64,000 nt of DNA from a virus (Duplodnaviria; Caudoviricetes), in IMG/VR virus record IMGVR_UViG_2848732850_000001, positions 2,123 to 66,122 of that record; one strand, 5' to 3'. Position 1 is the first letter of the stretch, and each line of letters opens with the position of its first letter. The notes below the pieces were generated by a model, which was not told where the DNA came from, did no database searches, and saw only the letters and a program-made list of their open reading frames with translations. Shown piece by piece: positions 1 to 51,319 of this stretch. The translations under genes and the position numbers were made by a program.

Positions 1-12
1 ATTGCTTCGTTT

Positions 13-252
13 ATGAACGAGAAAGGCGAATGTTACCCGACACAAGCACAAATCGCAAAGGGTCTCGGAGTAAGCCGACAAGCTGCAGGAAAGCGAATTC
101 GAAAGTTACTTGAATATCGATGGCAGGGACGTCCATTAGTTACGGCGGTGCAGGATAGAGCAAGAGACGGTACGTGGGATAATACGAGGTATACCGTGTT
201 GCCGATAAGCCAAATTCGAATATTTGACGCTGAACCAGAGGAGTTAACATAG
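13..252 (+). CDS. Winged-HTH replication-initiator-like protein, C-terminal part (5' truncated by window edge)
   Basis: CYPTQAQIAKGLGVSRQAAGKRIRKL HTH_36-like motif, then a wing ending NTRYTV. Confidence 0.7.
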   Translation: MNEKGECYPTQAQIAKGLGVSRQAAGKRIRKLLEYRWQGRPLVTAVQDRARDGTWDNTRYTVLPISQIRIFDAEPEELT

Positions 253-506
253 CTGTCCATGCAACCTGTAGTCACGTAGTCTATAGCCACCATGGGTGTA
301 GGTTGCACTAACAAGAACTATGTTTTAACAAGAACTAGTATTTTAACAAGAAAAGATACCAGCGCTAAAAAATTAGACGTAATTAAGTACCTTTTCGGAG
401 TAAGTAAAAAGAAAGAAAAACCTACGTCCTTGAAAGAAAAGCACTTTCAAGTCCGGGTCATATAATACATCCGAAAAATAACTACTATAAAGATACTTCG
501 GAAAAT
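253..506 (+). repeat. Origin-like/structured non-coding element, copy A
   Basis: Inverted repeat TGCAACCT (260-267)/AGGTTGCA (300-307); 3x TAACAAGA (309, 326, 344); AAAAGATACC; hairpin CTTGAAAG-N7-CTTTCAAG (429-451); homologous to 39880-40215. Confidence 0.7.
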
Positions 507-523
507 GCTAACTGAATAAAGGA

Positions 524-1378
524 GTGAGAAAGTTGAACGAAGTAAGAGAACAACTAAAGCAAGAGTTATCCTCCGACATCAACATAATAACAGCCGAAAT
601 AAATGCATATAAGCAAGTAGCAGGCGAAGCGATATTTGAAATAGGGAGGAGATTAAAGCATGTAAGGGATGTTATTTTCGAGGACACTATTCGGAAACAG
701 AAAGGGGACTGGCGTAATTTTCTACGTAGTGTAGATTTCGATATAACTACTGCAAAAAGATTCATCAAGGTTTATGAAGAATTCGGCGAGGATGGTGACA
801 CGTGGCACCGACTTACGATGCGTGTTCTGTACGAAATAGCCACACTCCCGCCCGAAGAACGCGACAAACCGCACACCACGTCAAAAGGCGAGCAGAAAAC
901 CCCTTCCGAAATGACCGTCCGTGAACTACGACAACTCAAAGCGGACTTAAAGCGGGCGGAGGAACAACGCAGGCAAGCCGAACAACAAGCCGAACTCGAA
1001 CGCAAGGAACGAGAGCGCCTCGAAGCATTGGCGAATAAACCGCCGGAAGTTCGCGTTGAAACGAAAACGGAATACGTAGAGCCGGATGATTACGAGGACT
1101 TGCGAAGGGAGAATGCGGAGTTGAAAAGTAAGTACGGCGTAGGGGTACGTAGGGTTAGCGGTGAAAATAGAGCGGAATTTTTCCGAGAGTTTGCGAATGA
1201 TCTTAAGTATATTTACGAAAAGTATGGGTCGGTTGTGATAGACGCATATAAACTTAACGAATTCGTAGAACAGGAGAAAGAAGTAGGCGAAAAAATCAAC
1301 GAGTTTGATGATTTTTGGAATATGTTCAGCAAGTCTGTTTTTAAAAATACTAATATTATAGAAATGGAGAGTGTTTAA
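524..1378 (+). CDS. DUF3102-like phage protein with coiled coil
   Basis: ITAEINAYKQVAGEAIFEIGRRLKHVR and LYEIATLPPEER...MTVRELR motifs. Confidence 0.7.
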   Translation: MRKLNEVREQLKQELSSDINIITAEINAYKQVAGEAIFEIGRRLKHVRDVIFEDTIRKQKGDWRNFLRSVDFDITTAKRFIKVYEEFGEDGDTWHRLTMRVLYEIATLPPEERDKPHTTSKGEQKTPSEMTVRELRQLKADLKRAEEQRRQAEQQAELERKERERLEALANKPPEVRVETKTEYVEPDDYEDLRRENAELKSKYGVGVRRVSGENRAEFFREFANDLKYIYEKYGSVVIDAYKLNEFVEQEKEVGEKINEFDDFWNMFSKSVFKNTNIIEMESV

Positions 1379-1883
1379 TATGGGATTATTTAGATCAGCG
1401 ACCAAAAACGAATTAACAGCGGTCGGGAGTTTTGATTATGAAAAGTTAGCGGAAGTAATCATCAGCAGTAATAAGGAATTAATCAACGTAATTGCTGCAT
1501 CAATCAGTCAGTCAATTTCGCAAGAATTCAGCAAACTGTTAAACTCTACCAATCTACTAAGCGAAGATACAACGCGGGACACTAAACATAATTATATGGT
1601 AAGCAACGTTAATAATCTAAGTGATAAGAAAACTGCTGATGAGATTCTGGCAACGCTTTTCGGAAATATGCCCAAACAACATGCATCAAGACTACGCCCG
1701 TTCTATACGTATTTAGAGCAGATAACGTCGGCACCGTTATCAAAGTTCCACGAGGAAAGAGTCGCACATTTACCTAATAGAGGAGACAGCAAATATCCGT
1801 ACCGCAAAATGGACTCGATACTTATGGTATTAGATCCTACGTTAGTATTCGAAGAAGCGAAAAAATACGAATTTAAAAAATAA
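1371..1883 (+). CDS. Hypothetical phage protein
   Basis: 170-aa ORF overlapping the upstream gene end. Confidence 0.6.
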   Translation: MFNMGLFRSATKNELTAVGSFDYEKLAEVIISSNKELINVIAASISQSISQEFSKLLNSTNLLSEDTTRDTKHNYMVSNVNNLSDKKTADEILATLFGNMPKQHASRLRPFYTYLEQITSAPLSKFHEERVAHLPNRGDSKYPYRKMDSILMVLDPTLVFEEAKKYEFKK

Positions 1884-1901
1884 GGAAGGGGACGAATAAA
1901 C

Positions 1902-2216
1902 ATGCCGTTAAATATCCGAATCAACGAAAACTACCGAATTACATCCGACAACTTTAACGTTATTTTACGAAAGCGAAAGCTCGTAGACCCAACGAAAGCA
2001 CCGAACTGGCAACAACGCAAAGCCAACGGAGCATCCCCGGAAATCACCGTCAAGTGGGAGGACGTCGGATATTATCCGAAAATAGAGCAGGCGATTAACG
2101 ACGTAGTCAACAAAACGGTACTCGATTCAAACGCCGAAACAATTACGCAGCTGCTTGACGAAATAAGCCAAATTAGACGGCAAATTAACGAGGTTCTAAC
2201 GCAACATGACGAATAG
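1902..2216 (+). CDS. Conserved phage protein (DUF5405-like)
   Basis: I.INENYRITSD.FNVIL...GYY motif; RBS GGAAGGGG. Confidence 0.6.
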   Translation: MPLNIRINENYRITSDNFNVILRKRKLVDPTKAPNWQQRKANGASPEITVKWEDVGYYPKIEQAINDVVNKTVLDSNAETITQLLDEISQIRRQINEVLTQHDE

Positions 2217-2291
2217 TATTCAGCGGTGATAGAACGGCTCACAGGCTTTTAAAATTAAACGAGGAGGAGACGAGGTAATGTCGATTAAACA

Positions 2292-2648
2292 ATGCTAACG
2301 AAACAACAACTCGAAGAAATAGCGGAAAGAGCGAGCATGGCTACGGAAGGTCCGTGGGGAATCGCAGATACATCGGACGGAGCGTGGATTGTGGACGAGA
2401 GCGGCGACATTATCACTGGAACAACCGAACGCTTATCAGACGCAAACTTCATCGCCCACGCCCGAGAAGATGTACTGAATTTACTCGAACACGTTTCGAA
2501 ACAAAAGACGGAGATTGAGCAATTGAGAAACGAAATGTTAGATACTATCGGTTATGTAATGGGTGTGATGGAGGAGAATCGGCAGGTAGATAAATATCTA
2601 GATCGTGTGATCGATATGCTAATGGGGGCGTTATATAATGACGAATAA
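2292..2648 (+). CDS. Ead/Ea22-like phage protein
   Basis: ATEGPW...DANFIAHAREDV motif. Confidence 0.65.
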   Translation: MLTKQQLEEIAERASMATEGPWGIADTSDGAWIVDESGDIITGTTERLSDANFIAHAREDVLNLLEHVSKQKTEIEQLRNEMLDTIGYVMGVMEENRQVDKYLDRVIDMLMGALYNDE

Positions 2649-2684
2649 AATCGACTTACTATACGGAAAGGAGAGCGAGCGAGT

Positions 2685-3104
2685 ATGACGAAACCAACCA
2701 CGAAAGACTGGCGCAACCTACCGATAGAACGCTGGAACGTAACGACATTTACCGAATATTTACGGGATAAACACAAAGAAATGTTCGGAATTGAGTACGT
2801 ACCTTACCGAAGCTGGCGCGTAGAACAAGGGTTACTCGGAAACCTAATCGGAACACGAGCGAAGCCACAAACGGAAGATAAAGCGCTAGTAAAGCGATTC
2901 ATTGACGAAGCATTCTCCGAGTATCGCCCTAATCCGAAATATCCGGGCGTTAGTTTCGGCTGGTGCTGGACGTATAAAAAACCGACATGGCAACGGGTAA
3001 AGGCGGAGTATTTAGCGGAACAGAAAGCGGGAGAGCAGGCAGAAGAAGAAACGCAAGGCAACGTAGGCAAGCTCGATATGGACGACGTGCTGGACTGGCT
3101 GTAA
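2685..3104 (+). CDS. Conserved phage replication-region protein
   Basis: 139-aa ORF with strong RBS upstream of the loader/helicase cluster. Confidence 0.65.
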   Translation: MTKPTTKDWRNLPIERWNVTTFTEYLRDKHKEMFGIEYVPYRSWRVEQGLLGNLIGTRAKPQTEDKALVKRFIDEAFSEYRPNPKYPGVSFGWCWTYKKPTWQRVKAEYLAEQKAGEQAEEETQGNVGKLDMDDVLDWL

Positions 3105-4788: not shown

Positions 4789-5532
4789 TTGCGGAATCAA
4801 TGCTTACTAAACGAAGTAACGACGGAAGCCTGCACGCCTCACTCCGCCTTGCACGTCGCATTTCACGGTACAAGCGGAACAGGCGGACGACTTGGCGCAG
4901 CTAACGTACCACCAGATTATCGGCACGTAACGGTGTCAAACTCGCCTGCCCGCGCTGACCAAGCGAAAGTATATACGGTGGTTGATCAGTATATTGTAAC
5001 GTTCAGCCGACAGTTTGACGAAGAAGCCGAACGTATAAAGTCCGTCTACTTACACAGCGAAGAACCCGGCACGGGGAAAACAACGACAGCAGTCGCAATA
5101 CTAAACGCTTGGCTTGTCGTACATTACGTCGGCTCTATTCAACGCGGATTACAGCCGAAGCAACGTCCTGCATACTTCCTCGACGCACACGCATTACAGC
5201 AAGACTACAACGCATTTAACCGACCACGTGTGCCTGACTCAATCGCTAATCCGGCAGGCGAACGTTACTACAACGCCATTATGCGAGCAAAGGAAGCGCC
5301 TTTTGCGGTGATTGACGACCTAGCTACACGAAGCACAAGCGAGGCATTTGTGGCGGACTTACACGGCGTGATTAATGCGAGAGTGACTAGCGGAAAGCCA
5401 ACGGTATATACGTCAAACGTAGCGGTTGATAAACTGCCAATAGTTTTCGGCGAACGAAGGCTTGCCGACAGAATTGCCGATCAGTGCCTTACGTTACATT
5501 TCGGAGGGAAATCGAAAAGGGGGATGCGATAA
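4789..5532 (+). CDS. DnaC/IstB-like AAA+ helicase loader
   Basis: Walker A PGTGKTT, Walker B VIDD, YTSN, RLADRI. Confidence 0.88.
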   Translation: MRNQCLLNEVTTEACTPHSALHVAFHGTSGTGGRLGAANVPPDYRHVTVSNSPARADQAKVYTVVDQYIVTFSRQFDEEAERIKSVYLHSEEPGTGKTTTAVAILNAWLVVHYVGSIQRGLQPKQRPAYFLDAHALQQDYNAFNRPRVPDSIANPAGERYYNAIMRAKEAPFAVIDDLATRSTSEAFVADLHGVINARVTSGKPTVYTSNVAVDKLPIVFGERRLADRIADQCLTLHFGGKSKRGMR

Positions 5533-31297: not shown

Positions 31298-32848
31298 TTG
31301 TTTAACGAGGAGAACAAGGATTTTTACCCCACGCCTAAAGATCTGTTTTATAAACTGATGAATGGAACTAGATATATAAGCGGTAGAATTTTAGAGCCGT
31401 CCGCCGGAAAAGGTGACTTGATTCGATATATAAAAGAATTAAATCGTAATGTAAAAATAGACGCAATAGAAAGGGACAGCCGTTTATCGGGTCTGCTAAT
31501 GGGCGAAGGAATTAACGTCGTATGGGATGACTTTCTCACGTATAAAACGTATAAAGAATACGACCTTATCGTAATGAATCCACCATTTAGCAACGGAGTA
31601 GACCACGCTTTGAAGGCGTTGGAGTTAGTGGAAAATCAACTGAGTGCTTGCGAAGTTTATATAATACTAAATAAAGAAACGCTTAACAACGCCTATTCCA
31701 ATAAAAGACAAGAGTTGTTGCGTAAGCTAAACGAACACAACGCAGAAATTAGGTACGTAAAGGACGCTTTTACTTCTGCTGAACGAAAAACGGACGTAGA
31801 GGTTGCGTTAATTAACGTTGTAATCGCAAATAAAGGAGAAGGCAAGTCGATATACGACGATATTCCGTTTATTAGGCGAGAGGAAACGGAAGGCGCTGCC
31901 TCACTAGAAACAGCGTTGTCTACATACGTTAAAAGTAACGAAGTTAAGGCGAAAATTAACGACATAGAACGTTTAGTGCTTGAGTACGAAAAGGCGTGCG
32001 AGGTTGCTAAAACGTCGTACAAGGTTATGCGTAATAAGTCCTCTCTGTTTAGTTATTTCGGTAAAGTAAACAAGAAAGACAGCGAAATTGGTTCGCCTTT
32101 TACTTACGTGACCAAAAAAGAGTATACCGCAGAAGATTTAAACAACGAGCTAGATAGTTTAAGACGGATTTATTGGGAGTTAATTTTAGATACAGGCGAA
32201 TTTAAAGAGCTGTTAACAAACGAGTCAAGACAGAAGCTAACCCGCCAATTAGAGGTAGCAAACGAAATGGAGATAAATATAACAAACATTAAAACGTTGT
32301 TAACTGCTCTAGGCGCAAACCGTGAAGATATGTTAATCGACTCTATTATTTCGATGTTTGAACGTATTACACAGTACCATATGAATCAGTACTCGACTAA
32401 CATCCACTATTACGACGGATGGAAAACGAACAACGCTTATAAAATTAACAAAAAGATAATCATTCCGATACAACGAGGCGGCTTTGACGAATGGGATTAT
32501 AGAGAGGATTTCGGCATTTTATGTATGGGCGTCAGAGAGTTTATAGAGGACATCGTAAAAGCGTTCCAACTGATCGACCCTTCCGTGTCAAACGAATTTA
32601 CTTACGTAGCTAGAGGAGAGTTTGAAAACGACTTACTCCGTTTTAAAATGTTTAACAACGGTAATATCCACGTTTGGTTTAAACGCTTTGACTTGCTAAA
32701 CAGGCTTAATTATATATGTGGTAGTCACTTCAACTGGATTCCGTCCGAGGACGAAGTTAAAACGGACAGCAAAGCACGGGAATTTGTCGTCAAGGAATTC
32801 GGAGAAGGCGTCTTATCAAGCGGATTGTTAGTCGGAGGTGCTTCGTAA
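31298..32848 (+). CDS. Putative N6-adenine methyltransferase with DUF4942-like C-terminus
   Basis: DFYPTP, ILEPSAGKG, MNPPF; C-terminal KMFNNGNIHVWF...LN. Confidence 0.85.
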   Translation: MFNEENKDFYPTPKDLFYKLMNGTRYISGRILEPSAGKGDLIRYIKELNRNVKIDAIERDSRLSGLLMGEGINVVWDDFLTYKTYKEYDLIVMNPPFSNGVDHALKALELVENQLSACEVYIILNKETLNNAYSNKRQELLRKLNEHNAEIRYVKDAFTSAERKTDVEVALINVVIANKGEGKSIYDDIPFIRREETEGAASLETALSTYVKSNEVKAKINDIERLVLEYEKACEVAKTSYKVMRNKSSLFSYFGKVNKKDSEIGSPFTYVTKKEYTAEDLNNELDSLRRIYWELILDTGEFKELLTNESRQKLTRQLEVANEMEINITNIKTLLTALGANREDMLIDSIISMFERITQYHMNQYSTNIHYYDGWKTNNAYKINKKIIIPIQRGGFDEWDYREDFGILCMGVREFIEDIVKAFQLIDPSVSNEFTYVARGEFENDLLRFKMFNNGNIHVWFKRFDLLNRLNYICGSHFNWIPSEDEVKTDSKAREFVVKEFGEGVLSSGLLVGGAS

Positions 32849-33504
32849 TGAGCGAGGAGACCACCTACAAAGAACGCTTACAAGACGACTATAACCGTAT
32901 ACGCACGCAAGTAAAGGCGGGCGAACTTCCGCAGCCAGCCCGCAACCAAGCGATAGACGAAGCGGTGAGTGCGTATGTCCTAGCGCAGGATACGGAGTTT
33001 GAACGTAAGGGGGATCGCGCGCCCATTGCGTTTAGGGATGCGAACATGCTCGATCGATTCGCAAATTTAATCCTACACGAAGATTTGACGTGGAGTCATC
33101 CGGATAAAATGAGTATCGTGGAGTATCCGGTGATGAGTGACGCGCAAGAATGTCGGAGGGAGCGTAAATATAGACCGTCTGATAACGTTTATTACGATAG
33201 TGGGCAGTTTAGCGGTAGGAAAACGGGCTACGACATGGGAGAGGACGGAGAACTTGGAAAGAAAACGTCGAGCCCCGTATTTAGTCCGATACATAACGAG
33301 GAAATTAATCGAAAAGACGTAAGTATAGACGTGCTTACGTTGTTAGATGACGCAGGATTGACGACTAGGCAACGAGAGGCGGTCGAGTTGGTATATTTCG
33401 AGGGATTGACGCAGGAGCAGGCGGCTGAGCGGATGGGCATACACAAAGCAAACGTCAATGCTTACGTGGGGTTTGCGTTAGATAAACTGCGGGTGGTTAC
33501 GTAA
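32848..33504 (+). CDS. Sigma-70 region 4-like transcription factor
   Basis: LTTRQREAVELVYFEGLTQEQAAERMGI...V...ALDKL. Confidence 0.82.
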   Translation: MSEETTYKERLQDDYNRIRTQVKAGELPQPARNQAIDEAVSAYVLAQDTEFERKGDRAPIAFRDANMLDRFANLILHEDLTWSHPDKMSIVEYPVMSDAQECRRERKYRPSDNVYYDSGQFSGRKTGYDMGEDGELGKKTSSPVFSPIHNEEINRKDVSIDVLTLLDDAGLTTRQREAVELVYFEGLTQEQAAERMGIHKANVNAYVGFALDKLRVVT

Positions 33505-36036: not shown

Positions 36037-36065
36037 TTGACAGTACCTAAAATGTATTATATACT
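36037..36065 (+). promoter_or_regulatory. SigmaA promoter driving the solitary CRISPR repeat
   Basis: TTGACA-N17-TATACT, 11 nt upstream of the repeat; no ORF downstream on +. Confidence 0.85.
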
Positions 36066-39173: not shown

Positions 39174-39365
39174 ATGGAAAGCCGAACAAATAAATACTTC
39201 TATTGTTATTCGAACAATCTTAAAAACCGTTTGCTGGACGAAGGCGAGCGGTTTATTTGTGTCGGAATAAATGAGCGGTCAAATAAGCGATTTTGGTTGT
39301 TTGAGCAGTCGGAAAAGCTGTCGGAGGTACTGACGGATTGGAAGGCACGTAAGGCACCTAAATGA
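39174..39365 (+). CDS. Small conserved phage protein (DUF5659-like)
   Basis: KYFYCYS..L...L...G..FIC.G.N....K.FWLF. Confidence 0.6.
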   Translation: MESRTNKYFYCYSNNLKNRLLDEGERFICVGINERSNKRFWLFEQSEKLSEVLTDWKARKAPK

Positions 39366-39394
39366 GTAACGCCGTGTAATTAAATATCGTATAA

Positions 39395-39859
39395 ATGGAG
39401 GAGTTATTTATGAGCGAAGAAAAACGAAAGGTTTACAATAAAACGCAACCAAGCGCAGGAGGACGCACGTTTACGCCAATTCCAAGTACTATAAGACATT
39501 ACATACACCACCCGAAAGTTAAGCCGGGAATGTTGTATTTATATGCGCTTATTATCGATTATTATAACGTAGAGCAAGGATATGCGTTTCCTAGTGTCGA
39601 TCAATTAGCGTTGGATTATGGAATGTCGTACAACGCTACGTCAAAGCATATCGAGGTTTTGCGTGATGTCGGTCTGATTGACTATCCGGAGAAAGGCAAG
39701 TACGTTCCGTTGGAGCCGTTAGAAGCATCGGAATTCTACGACGAGTTTCCAGAAGCGTGGGCGAAATATACGCAGGCTCGTAAAGCTAGCGATAATAAAC
39801 GCGAGAAAGACCGAGAAAGAATGCGTAAGTGGCGTATGGATAACGGTTATGGATCGTAG
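39395..39859 (+). CDS. Second winged-HTH replication-initiator-like protein
   Basis: FT.IP...LY..I.DY.N...GYAFPS.DQLA..YGMS......HI..L...GLI. Confidence 0.75.
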   Translation: MEELFMSEEKRKVYNKTQPSAGGRTFTPIPSTIRHYIHHPKVKPGMLYLYALIIDYYNVEQGYAFPSVDQLALDYGMSYNATSKHIEVLRDVGLIDYPEKGKYVPLEPLEASEFYDEFPEAWAKYTQARKASDNKREKDRERMRKWRMDNGYGS

Positions 39860-39879
39860 ATATTTCGAGTACCGAAGTT

Positions 39880-40215
39880 TGTCACGCCTTAAATTGGGTG
39901 TACGGATTACGCTATTTGGGTGTACGTTTCATTCTAATTGGGTGTTAACTAGATTTAATTAACTAGACTTATTTAACGAGATTTAAAAAGATACCGTAAA
40001 TACCTAAAACCTTGAAAGAGTTAAAACCTACGCCTTGTAAGAAGAGCACTTACAAGTCGGGTCATATATAAATTAAACACATTTCGAAAATGAATGATAC
40101 TTCGAAAATATAGTAAGTACATAAACGATAATTAAGTAAATAGGTATAAGTCGAAGAAAGTAATTATTCTAAAGAATAACAAGAGATAACCGTACACCCA
40201 AAGTGGAGCGTGACA
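39880..40215 (+). repeat. Origin-like/structured non-coding element, copy B
   Basis: TTGGGTGT at 39894/39916/39938 (22-bp period); TAACNAGA x3 (14-bp period); AAAAGATACC; hairpin CTTGTAAG-N7-CTTACAAG; terminal inverted repeat 21/26. Confidence 0.75.
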
Positions 40216-40291
40216 TATTTTGAAATAAAGATACTTTAATGTAGCAAAGCGTCATTTGACGGATAGACCACGTAAAGGAGGACGAATAAAC

Positions 40292-40690
40292 ATGGCGAAG
40301 AAACTCAGCGAAAAACAATACGCGGCTATTGCCATATTGTCATTGCCAAAAAAAGGCGGAATGACGTATGAGCAGATAGCGGATGAGATTGGAGTATCAT
40401 CGGAAACATTGCGTAGATGGCGTAACGAAGATACATTTAACGATGAACTAAAGCGTAACATTATGCGGAGTACGATTGAGCGACTACCGGACATTATGGC
40501 GTCTGTTCCGGATCATATAATTGAGCAAGGAAATGCTGCGATGTTTCGTACATTACTGCAAGCACACGGATTACTAACGGAGAAGCACGAGGTTACTAGC
40601 GGGAATAATGACGCAAAAGACATTGACGTTATGAAGGCAGAATTGGCGGAATTTAAGAAGCGAAAACATGGCGAGAATTATTCGGAATAA
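40292..40690 (+). CDS. terS: Terminase small subunit (phBC6A51-type HTH)
   Basis: LSEKQ.AAI..L...TYEQIADEIGVS..TL.RWR; upstream of TerL. Confidence 0.8.
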   Translation: MAKKLSEKQYAAIAILSLPKKGGMTYEQIADEIGVSSETLRRWRNEDTFNDELKRNIMRSTIERLPDIMASVPDHIIEQGNAAMFRTLLQAHGLLTEKHEVTSGNNDAKDIDVMKAELAEFKKRKHGENYSE

Positions 40691-46044: not shown

Positions 46045-46069
46045 GAGTCGCTAAATTAGGCGGCTTTTT
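46045..46069 (+). terminator. Terminator-like hairpin between scaffold and capsid genes
   Basis: GAGTCGCT-loop-GGCGGCTT plus T run. Confidence 0.55.
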
Positions 46070-50933: not shown

Positions 50934-51263
50934 ATGGCGAAATCAAAAGACGAGTTAAAAACCGTTTTTGTAACGGGCGCAGTACCAACACAACAAGATT
51001 TCCATGATTTGATCGATGTTGCAGGGATTAAAGGAGATCCCGGGGTTGCAGGTAAGTCAGCATATCAAGTTGCTGTAGACAATGGCTTCAAAGGAACTGA
51101 GCAAGAATGGTTGGCATCTTTAAAGGGACCGAAAGGCGATTCTGTAAAAGGTAAAGACGGCGTTGGAGTTGCAGATATTACATCCGACGGAACTACTATT
51201 ACGTTTGAAATGACGGACGGGACTACGAAAGAGATTCCGTTTCCTTCCACAGGCGGACAGTAA
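50934..51263 (+). CDS. Collagen-like tail decoration protein
   Basis: LK..F.TG..PT..DF..LID N-motif, Gly-X-Y, GKSAY..AV.NGF.GT..EWL.SLKG. Confidence 0.75.
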   Translation: MAKSKDELKTVFVTGAVPTQQDFHDLIDVAGIKGDPGVAGKSAYQVAVDNGFKGTEQEWLASLKGPKGDSVKGKDGVGVADITSDGTTITFEMTDGTTKEIPFPSTGGQ

Positions 51264-51319
51264 ACCGCCTTTTTCTTTATTTATAAATTAAATTTAAATA
51301 CGAAAAGGAGCGAGTCATA

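Follow-up and report, generated by a model that had tools for sequence, protein, structure and literature searches.

A conserved cassette of repeats and a covarying hairpin follows two HTH_36 genes of a Bacillales siphophage and possibly controls its long operons

A Bacillales provirus carries two copies of a composite element of direct repeats and hairpins, each in the spacer directly downstream of a gene for a small protein with an HTH_36 winged helix. The window analysed is a stretch of 64,000 nucleotides (bases 2123-66122) of the 66,122-bp IMG/VR provirus record IMGVR_UViG_2848732850_000001. Copy A (253-523) lies directly 3' of the gene here named HTH-A and heads a 33-kb early/replication operon; copy B (39860-40291) follows HTH-B and lies directly before terS, the gene for the terminase small subunit. 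Both copies, and all features given below unless stated otherwise, are on the + strand. The cassette is a real, conserved element family and apparently has not been described so far. Sequence comparison and gene position point to a reading in which each copy would be a cis-acting transcription control cassette, heading a long operon and worked by the HTH_36 protein encoded upstream of it; we put the probability of this reading at roughly 0.4.

The two copies have the same order: type-specific repeats come first, then TAACNAGA three times, then AGATACC and then a two-tier hairpin. The original prediction, made from the window alone, had described the same ordered elements after two dissimilar HTH genes, and every element it listed is present where it was placed. 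One detail is corrected: the spacing of the triplet is unequal, at 17-18 nt in copy A and 14 nt in copy B. The exact words CGGGTCATATA and AAAACCTACG occur at only these two sites in 64 kb. A covariance model of the hairpin finds 419-462 (39.1 bits, E 1.6e-8) and 40025-40067 (32.7 bits, E 1.7e-6), and its next-best matches in the window have E values of 5.6 and 6.8. The window contains two cassette copies only.

In copy A, the type-specific segment (253..308) starts directly after the HTH-A stop codon. It contains GTAGTC twice, an inverted repeat recognised by reading the sequence (TGCAACCT, 260-267; AGGTTGCA, 300-307) and the word ATGGGTGTA (292-300). Three direct repeats TAACAAGA follow at 309-316, 326-333 and 344-351, and after them AAAAGATACC (351-360). 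Hairpin 1 lies in a conserved block (417..466) defined by sequence, folding and the covariance model. Its upper stem pairs CTTGAAAG (429-436) with CTTTCAAG (444-451) across the loop AAAAGCA; the lower stem is formed by 420-426 and 454-458, with a TC/TC internal loop, and GGGTCATATAAT comes after the hairpin. A second inverted repeat, TCCGAA (471-476) and TTCGGA (497-502), encloses AAAGATACT. The - strand fold includes an extra inverted repeat found in copy A only (GAAAAGATAC, 350-359; GTACCTTTTC, 387-396), in which one A.C on the + strand is G.U on the - strand. A 57-aa open reading frame (ORF; 292-465, ATG at 292) spans cassette A. It is probably noncoding, because it has no counterpart in copy B and the pattern of conservation is that of repeats.

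Copy B has its own type-specific segment (39860..39946) with three TTGGGTGTA/T repeats at 39894, 39916 and 39938; they are spaced by 22 nt, and the first begins 35 nt past the HTH-B stop codon. Direct repeats TAACTAGA, TAACTAGA and TAACGAGA start at 39946, 39960 and 39974, and AAAAAGATACC follows at 39985-39995. The conserved block (40023..40068) is defined by the same three kinds of evidence as in copy A. The upper stem of hairpin 1 is CTTGTAAG (40034-40041) and CTTACAAG (40049-40056) with the loop AAGAGCA; the lower stem is 40026-40032/40058-40062 with a C/T internal loop. TTCGAA (40083-40088) and TTCGAA (40101-40106) form the second inverted repeat and enclose GATACT. Further on, sequence and folding identify a third hairpin, TTATTC-TAAA-GAATAA (40164-40179), and downstream of it the type-specific repeat recurs in inverted form as GTACACCCAA (40192-40201). 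This inverted repeat, the third hairpin and the lower stem of hairpin 1 are absent from the original prediction. The third hairpin and the inverted type-specific repeat also occur as a pair in five other loci (L164, L167, L169, L170 and L171). Both predicted differences between the copies, the compensatory pair in the stem and the covarying second inverted repeat, are confirmed. Relative to copy A, copy B has lost one T on the 5' side and one C on the 3' side of the stem, and the lower stem ACC..CG/CGGGT is kept.

The cassette is widespread. Homologues of HTH-A (51-81% identity) are present in 32 IMG/VR loci and homologues of HTH-B in two. The triple repeat lies directly 3' of the gene in 33 of these 34 loci; L027 has two repeats. 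Further A-type cassettes are found in the phages Mgbh1 and Halcyone, in the phage-plasmid pBWB403 and in Bacilli prophages, and further B-type cassettes in L164, L167-L171 and the Sporosarcina phage Lietuvens. Cassettes also follow homologues in metagenomes and bacterial genomes; among 401 sampled Bacilli genomes 23 have a match, and the repeat pattern comes after nine of 14 stand-alone ORFs. The prediction of a portable module of HTH gene and cis element is borne out by these loci and by the covarying hairpin. Degenerate versions were recognised by eye in L207 and L208. A scan of IMG/VR for the triple-repeat pattern returned mostly coding tandem repeats, and true cassettes were picked from it by eye (L048, L051, L061, L065, L069, L073, L141, L146, L148, L149, L151, L152, L155 and L159). 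Some phages have type A only (G001-G005, Halcyone, Mgbh1), Lietuvens has type B only, and two phages have both. Plasmid pBWB403 of B. mycoides KBAB4 (L226 2083-4014) is a 65-kb circular phage-plasmid in which parM and a small ORF replace int upstream of HTH-A; the order is parM, small ORF, HTH-A, a two-repeat cassette and a DnaB helicase gene. No description of the cassette was found in the literature on HTH_36 phages, late regulators and related phages (supplements not covered). The Mgbh1 paper reports no repeats of significance, at a minimum length of 15 bp.

Proximal words distinguish the types. In A-type cassettes there are one to three CAYRYGG-like or GTCACACGGC-like repeats, which start at the stop codon or a few nucleotides past it. 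B-type cassettes have GTACACNCAA-like words with an inverted copy downstream; the words depend on the phage and include GTACACCCAA, GTACACACAA, GTACACGCAA and a 16-bp word in Lietuvens. The order after the proximal words is common to the family: three (T)AASNAGA repeats, TAAAnnATA(C/G), a hairpin with a GC clamp, and a second inverted repeat. The clamp is CCG/CGG, GCG/CGC or CG/CG; within it lie an upper stem of 4-8 bp and an internal loop that often has TC on both sides. Hairpin 1 closes either with a loop of 7 nt (AARNNCN) or with a tetraloop (TTAC, TTGC, TAAC or TATC). The second inverted repeat flanks an AT-rich stretch, and other phages have covarying equivalents of it.

The upper stems all differ, and each is perfectly paired; their 5' arms include CTTGAAAG, CTTGTAAG, CTTAAAG, ATTTAAGG, GGATATG, GGAATAG, AATAAGC, GAAGGG, GGGAT, GGGC, GGAGAC, GAATGC, GATTTAT, AAACCC and AGTAAGG, among others. 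Covariation scores 0.515, whereas shuffles give 0.205 +/- 0.039 (0/500 reach 0.515) and slid partners 0.201 or less. Two-sided changes occur in all 11 hairpin pairs when 12 sequences are aligned to the model. Paired cells make up 70.5% of this alignment, since stems of unequal length align imperfectly. A perfect stem of at least 6 bp is found in 19 of 45 unique cassettes; 200 shuffles give a mean of 6.84 and a maximum of 15. The covariance model R1 recovered its 12 seeds only, with L171 weakly, and missed the tetraloop class; the formal covariation test therefore covers 12 of about 24 hairpin-bearing variants.

A second phage with both types lies in Paenibacillus sp. SC116 (G006). Its HTH-A is at C11:1270737-1271135, and HTH-B lies about 34 kb away in the same orientation. 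The A cassette is placed after a GIY-YIG-like ORF inserted 3' of HTH-A. Cassettes A and B of this phage share about 170 nt at high identity; the upstream parts and the genes differ. Hairpin 1 is GGAATAG/CTATTCC in A versus GGATATG/CATATCC in B, which amounts to three compensated pairs. Three more hairpins are retained in G006 and L012, where pairs are compensated and loops vary, giving four successive hairpins in all. Two copies in one genome evidently evolve together, as read from such sequences, through conversion or because a single phage-specific factor reads the two of them. On the - strand, the third hairpin of B-type cassettes reads (T)GTTCTTTGAA (G006 C11:1236058-1236070), which resembles the host rrn leader word TTGTTCTTTGAAAAC (L188, L190). 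Mimicry of the host rrn boxA by the repeats or the third hairpin was considered and dropped; the likeness to the host leader covers 6-12 nt and is partly on the opposite strand.

The HTH proteins resemble parts of replication proteins. The window begins within HTH-A and holds its 3' part (1..252); the whole gene (L003 1946-2374) encodes 142 aa with an HTH_36 winged helix (Pfam HTH_36 E 5e-7; phrog_12720 E 2.4e-49). HTH-B (39395..39859) encodes 149-154 aa, with an HTH_36 winged helix and a long Arg/Lys-rich C-terminal helix; this description is based on Pfam, an alignment of nine homologues and an AlphaFold2 (AF2) model (helix 114-144). The Arg-rich helix is present in HTH-B and not in HTH-A. 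Pfam finds HTH_36 alone in both proteins, which are no more than distant relatives, 29% identical over 55 residues and with a profile-profile probability of 41%. Positions 2-133 of the 136-position HTH-A homologue profile match the N-terminal domain of chromosomal proteins of 372-398 aa (E 1e-11 to 1e-18). With hhalign, HTH-A aligns to a chromosomal DnaB_2-domain protein over the N-terminal 133 aa of the latter, at a probability of 98.2% (E 6e-14, 29% identity, 131 columns). These chromosomal relatives have two DnaB_2 domains; their gene is flanked in one genome by asnS and a DnaI/DnaC-like gene. On the basis of these near full-length matches, HTH-A is classified as a relative, in stand-alone form, of the DDBH1-type domain found in helicase-loading proteins of Firmicutes. 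Pfam finds no DnaB_2/DDBH2 domain in HTH-A. Both proteins have weak PHROG matches to replication initiators and DnaD-like loaders and are placed near DnaD_N clusters in Atlas. Neither is assigned to an Ltr family by Pfam, PHROG or NCBIfam. The AF2 models are of low to moderate confidence (pLDDT 60.5 and 65.2), and Foldseek against the PDB returns generic winged helices alone for both, with E above 1e-3.

The HTH-A locus attracts homing-type nucleases: in the Paenibacillus prophage a GIY-YIG-like ORF lies between HTH-A and the cassette (L187 about 1060-1500, - strand; G006 C11). In a B. subtilis phage fragment (L196 16862-18406), annotated PD-(D/E)XK and HNH endonucleases are fused to or inserted in HTH-A. 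A 27-kb B. subtilis 'plasmid' is a phage fragment. The small B. cereus plasmid pBFR_1 encodes an HTH-B relative (27% identical) and has no cassette, and is uninformative.

Pfam and PHROG annotation identifies the provirus as a single temperate siphophage. The 2.1 kb to the left of the window contain a tyrosine integrase gene (int), a lipoprotein gene and the 5' part of HTH-A; int and the lipoprotein gene each end in a canonical T-run terminator. The gene order is thus int, lipoprotein, HTH-A, spacer A (253-523) and a 33-kb rightward block. That block opens with a DUF3102 gene (524..1378; Pfam and ORF list), the first gene 3' of copy A, and includes a weak IstB-like ORF, a DnaB-like helicase, a Toprim primase, a family A polymerase (PolA), ribonucleotide reductase (RNR), methylases and a sigma-4-like ORF. 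A mixed, mainly leftward block occupies 33.5-38.7 kb. It is followed by small rightward ORFs, HTH-B (39395-39859), spacer B (39860-40291) and terS (40292..40690; PHROG terminase small subunit, E 8.8e-20). terS is the first gene of a packaging, structural and lysis block (terL, portal, capsid, tail, holin and amidase by Pfam) which reaches the end of the window.

Each of the two long rightward blocks has a cassette copy, A or B, at its head. HTH-A stands alone between a terminator and the 33-kb early/replication block, by gene order the place of an immediate-early regulator, and HTH-B is the last small gene before terS. A terS-like gene lies 3' of the B-type cassette wherever this is readable: in the window, L004 and L005, and by eye in L167-L169. 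In Lietuvens the B-type cassette is followed by two small ORFs and then the terS-like gene. No canonical sigma-A promoter is found on the + strand at either operon head, so an activator-dependent or otherwise unusual promoter would be needed. No terminator is predicted between HTH gene and cassette (1-700 and 39300-40400). Since none is predicted there and the genome has T-run terminators elsewhere, transcription of the cassette on the + strand is most likely. The four kept hairpins with variable loops in G006 and L012 form a pattern typical of a structured leader, as far as their sequences indicate. The separate occurrence of A and B types in different phages fits interchangeable operon-specific regulators.

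The original prediction did not include a control cassette; in this role, the element could work as follows. The HTH gene would be expressed first. Its product would bind the direct repeats from its own stop codon on, namely the type-specific words and possibly the TAACNAGA triplet too. The bound protein would then activate transcription of the downstream operon or render transcription resistant to termination. The shared core (TAACNAGA x3, AGATACC, the GC-clamped two-tier hairpin and the second inverted repeat) would be a non-canonical promoter and the structured 5' leader of both operons. The hairpin would serve in RNA form, as a stabiliser near the 5' end or as a site of loading or recognition. 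Anatomy, conservation, covariation and positions are observed; that the protein binds, that there is a promoter, that the hairpin is transcribed and which way the effect goes are what we infer here.

A comparable design is known from late gene activation. The proteins of the Ltr superfamily (RinA, ArpU, LtrA-C; Quiles-Puchalt et al. 2013, PMC3753634) are basic late activators of ~15 kDa (~130 aa) encoded just upstream of terS. Their binding sites are two to four direct repeats lying just distal to the activator coding sequence; spacers of phages with different Ltr families are near-identical except for the repeats, and contain both a terminator and, 28 or 118 bp before terS, a start that depends on the activator (same source). 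Copy B is alike in position, in protein size and charge, and in the placement of its repeats. The relation of A to B, with a different gene, different proximal repeats and a shared core, mirrors that of phi55 and phi29 as given there. HTH-B is likewise a small basic regulator just upstream of terS, ending 432 nt before it; this does not hold for copy A. A canonical promoter is missing in both systems. In 80alpha two TGGCAGT repeats lie directly 3' of rinA, as repeats follow the HTH genes here. The differences are considerable. The proteins here are HTH_36/DnaD-N-like, whereas Ltr proteins have a sigma-4-like fold; the 80alpha spacer has a T-run terminator, whereas none is predicted in the cassette spacers of the window. 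The cassette further contains three conserved repeats as a second set, besides a two-tier hairpin that covaries, and its second copy heads the early/replication operon.

Several observations weigh against the control reading. No promoter or transcription start was located in the spacers, and no RNA run is listed as containing window bases 1-3000. HTH_36 lies outside the five Ltr families, and both proteins resemble initiator- or DnaD-type winged helices. The Ltr regulators, LtrA (Sigma70_r4) and LtrB (DUF1492) among them, have a C-terminal domain in common. Ltr modules hold a terminator between activator gene and promoter, whereas here no such terminator is predicted. This model assigns no role to the GC clamp or to the conserved triplet of TAACNAGA repeats. 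Some 20 cassettes that are closely related to one another (the L010, L048, L024 and L033 groups) retain the clamp and TC...TC alone, with a loop of 12-29 nt and no strong upper stem. Thermodynamic z scores are weak for copies A and B, at -1.14 and -0.36 on the + strand and -2.89 and -1.01 on the - strand. Three stem mismatches (L007, L010 and the window hairpin 350-396) are A.C on the + strand and G.U on the - strand, and one (L012) is T.G on the + strand; because A.C and T.G mismatches are mixed, wobble pairs do not support a transcribed strand. The RNAalifold energy is equal on both strands. For the - strand, the TC/TC loop would be tandem G.A, and some of the tetraloops would be of the GNRA kind; GGAA and GTAA loops are found on the + strand in other G006 hairpins.

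Antitermination sites offer a second comparison. Lambda N acts with nutL and nutR, Q with qut, and HK022 has putL and putR at its operon heads. The lambda and HK022 sites likewise occur in two copies per genome, are promoter-proximal to very long operons and have the regulator gene adjacent. They too consist of a linear motif and a small hairpin, with slight compensated differences between copies. Sites of the nut type (boxA and boxB) lie downstream of a promoter and are bound by an Arg-rich peptide. The cassette has conserved linear motifs and a hairpin with the conserved loop AARNNCN, but an Arg-rich helix is seen in HTH-B alone, and no promoter was located in either spacer. However, no N-like or Q-like protein is encoded here, HTH_36 is expected to bind DNA, and terminator-like sites in the window operons occur at chance frequency.

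The cassettes might instead be replication origins, each with its own DnaD-N-like organiser protein, and the original prediction had proposed dual origins with hairpin priming signals; we rate this as a close second, a little less probable than the control reading. The type-specific repeats would be iterons, the AT-rich TAACNAGA triplet an unwinding element and the GC clamp its boundary. Hairpins in the unwound single-stranded DNA (ssDNA), or in a read-through transcript, would be priming or helicase-loading signals for the phage helicase, primase and PolA. The whole-length alignment of HTH-A with the N-terminal domain of proteins with two DnaB_2 domains agrees with this, as do the weak matches of the HTH proteins to initiators and DnaD-like loaders, the nearby DnaD_N clusters and the replication genes headed by copy A. 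So do the parM neighbour and the DnaB helicase gene of pBWB403, and the Halcyone cassette, which lies upstream of an annotated initiator, loader and helicase; Halcyone, however, has its initiator annotated separately (annotation only). The lack of a terminator between HTH gene and cassette would also be expected. Two sets of direct repeats (three each in the window), an AT-rich stretch and a GC-rich clamp suit an origin, but a promoter region would fit too. A primase homologue is present in all eight other module-bearing phage genomes tested, but this link is confounded by common ancestry. A comparison of hairpin strength with presence of a phage primase gave no contrast, as all eight genomes have the primase.

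Origins with an adjacent initiator gene are well known. Examples are SPP1 oriL/oriR with G38P, and iteron origins with an AT-rich region and a GC-rich segment; RSF1010 oriV has ssi hairpins, and pAMbeta1 has a transcription-primed origin just downstream of rep. The cassettes are similar in that an initiator-like winged-helix gene stands beside direct repeats, followed by an AT-rich block and then a GC-rich clamp. Further likenesses are the possible hairpin priming sites, the two distant copies and a helicase, primase and family A polymerase encoded by the phage itself. In contrast to these origins, each cassette copy has its own divergent protein, one copy always stands before terS, HTH-A has the N-terminal (DDBH1-like) domain alone, and a skew signal is absent.

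Further facts speak against origins. Copy B and its relatives lie directly before terS, an odd place for an origin, and the B-only phage Lietuvens would have that one alone. Two origins with two organisers would be unusual for a 66-kb phage. The cumulative GC skew shows a monotonic rise through both copies without any switch, although this is weak evidence, given that almost all genes are oriented one way. Full covariation of stems which vary in length and loop size is unusual for theta origins. The named phages with the closest primase (268TH002, 268TH007 and phi18-2) are without detectable HTH-A or HTH-B.

Elements of both models could be combined. The HTH_36/DnaD-N-like proteins and the cassette might form a new operon-head switch of Gram-positive phages, in which an organiser on the repeats uses the hairpin, as RNA or displaced ssDNA, either for processivity of RNA polymerase over 25-33-kb operons or for primer formation coupled to read-through. 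We regard such a switch as unlikely.

The original prediction had also offered a non-coding RNA (ncRNA) partnered with the HTH protein. That the conserved block encodes a small trans-acting ncRNA, on either strand, is very improbable and has gained no specific support. The hairpins covary, copy A folds best on its - strand (z -2.89), and a sigma-A-like promoter lies on that strand at 511-484. However, this promoter is missing from copy B, no terminator bounds an RNA on either strand, and position in cis and orientation always link the element to the HTH gene and the downstream operon. Rfam 15 has no match at gathering score in the whole window, and none in either spacer even at E up to 1.

A packaging (pac-type) site with flanking protein-binding repeats, or a recombinase core with a 7-bp spacer and arm-type repeats, is highly improbable. 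Copy B adjoins terS, with inverted type-specific repeats flanking the core; hairpin 1 has 8-bp inverted arms, an asymmetric 7-nt spacer and three direct repeats on one side, and the phage encodes a tyrosine integrase. Against this, copy A is distant from terS and internal to the provirus, and in Lietuvens about 1 kb separates the cassette from the start of the terminal repeat downstream. The arms vary in sequence and in length (4-8 bp), and the spacer in length (3, 4 or 7 nt), with pairing kept, which fits a nucleic-acid hairpin.

Chance, or a functionless recent local duplication, can practically be dismissed: the hairpin blocks of the window copies are closer to each other than to those of any other phage, but the block words are unique to the two sites, the flanks and HTH genes are unrelated, the cassette follows 50-80%-identical homologues in dozens of independent contigs, and G006 retains both copies with other stems, which rules out a recent accidental duplication in the window.

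Simpler identities were also rejected. The cassette is not a terminator, because it has no T run, unlike the true terminators of this genome. It is not a canonical sigma-A promoter, none being predicted on the + strand of either spacer, nor are its hairpin arms the source of a sigma-A or extracytoplasmic function (ECF)-type promoter, as they are wholly different between phages. Variable arm and spacer lengths exclude a protein-bound palindrome of fixed geometry. Cassettes are located elsewhere than at the provirus ends or the Lietuvens terminal repeat.

Some neighbouring features were recorded. Upstream of HTH-A and after the lipoprotein terminator, the word AAATTAAATGTCCCA occurs twice, about 75 nt apart (L003 about 1815-1830 and 1888-1902); the pair may be operators of a lysogeny switch. 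No repressor gene was identified near int. A 247-aa ORF (4789-5532) has a weak IstB_IS21 match (E 1.1e-3); it lies upstream of the DnaB-like helicase gene and is a candidate helicase loader. The halves of the sigma-4-like ORF (32848-33504) match two separate DNA places in G001 and G003-G005; in G002 the C-terminal half alone is matched. Its product could be an LtrA-like late regulator, or a factor reading the shared core. Sigma-like ORFs sit 2-3 kb upstream of terS in the A-only phages G001 and G003, which is uninformative. Near-consensus sigma-A promoters (11/12 matches) lie on the - strand at 38429-38401, 36842-36814, 34373-34345 and 30882-30854, and on the + strand at 36037-36065. They are the only ones in that part of the window and serve the leftward/accessory block between the long operons. 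In the late block, terminator-like T-run hairpins follow the scaffold gene (46045-46066) and ORF 50934-51263 (51251-51270); if functional, they would require read-through for expression of the later late genes.

The cassette bears on the timing of early and late operons and on the start of replication in large temperate Bacillales siphophages. It is a defined cis element that is widespread, comes with its cognate protein and has natural variants with compensatory changes, including two matched copies within single genomes. It is useful for annotation, as it marks operon heads in prophages and phage-plasmids. If the cassettes are origins, they would constitute a two-origin, two-organiser system with structured priming signals; the primer-coupled variant of a combined switch would be a single module design for gene expression and replication initiation. 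If they are transcription control cassettes, HTH_36 would be a sixth, unrelated protein family using the Ltr design of activator and distal repeats, and this design would be extended to early operons and to a structured leader.

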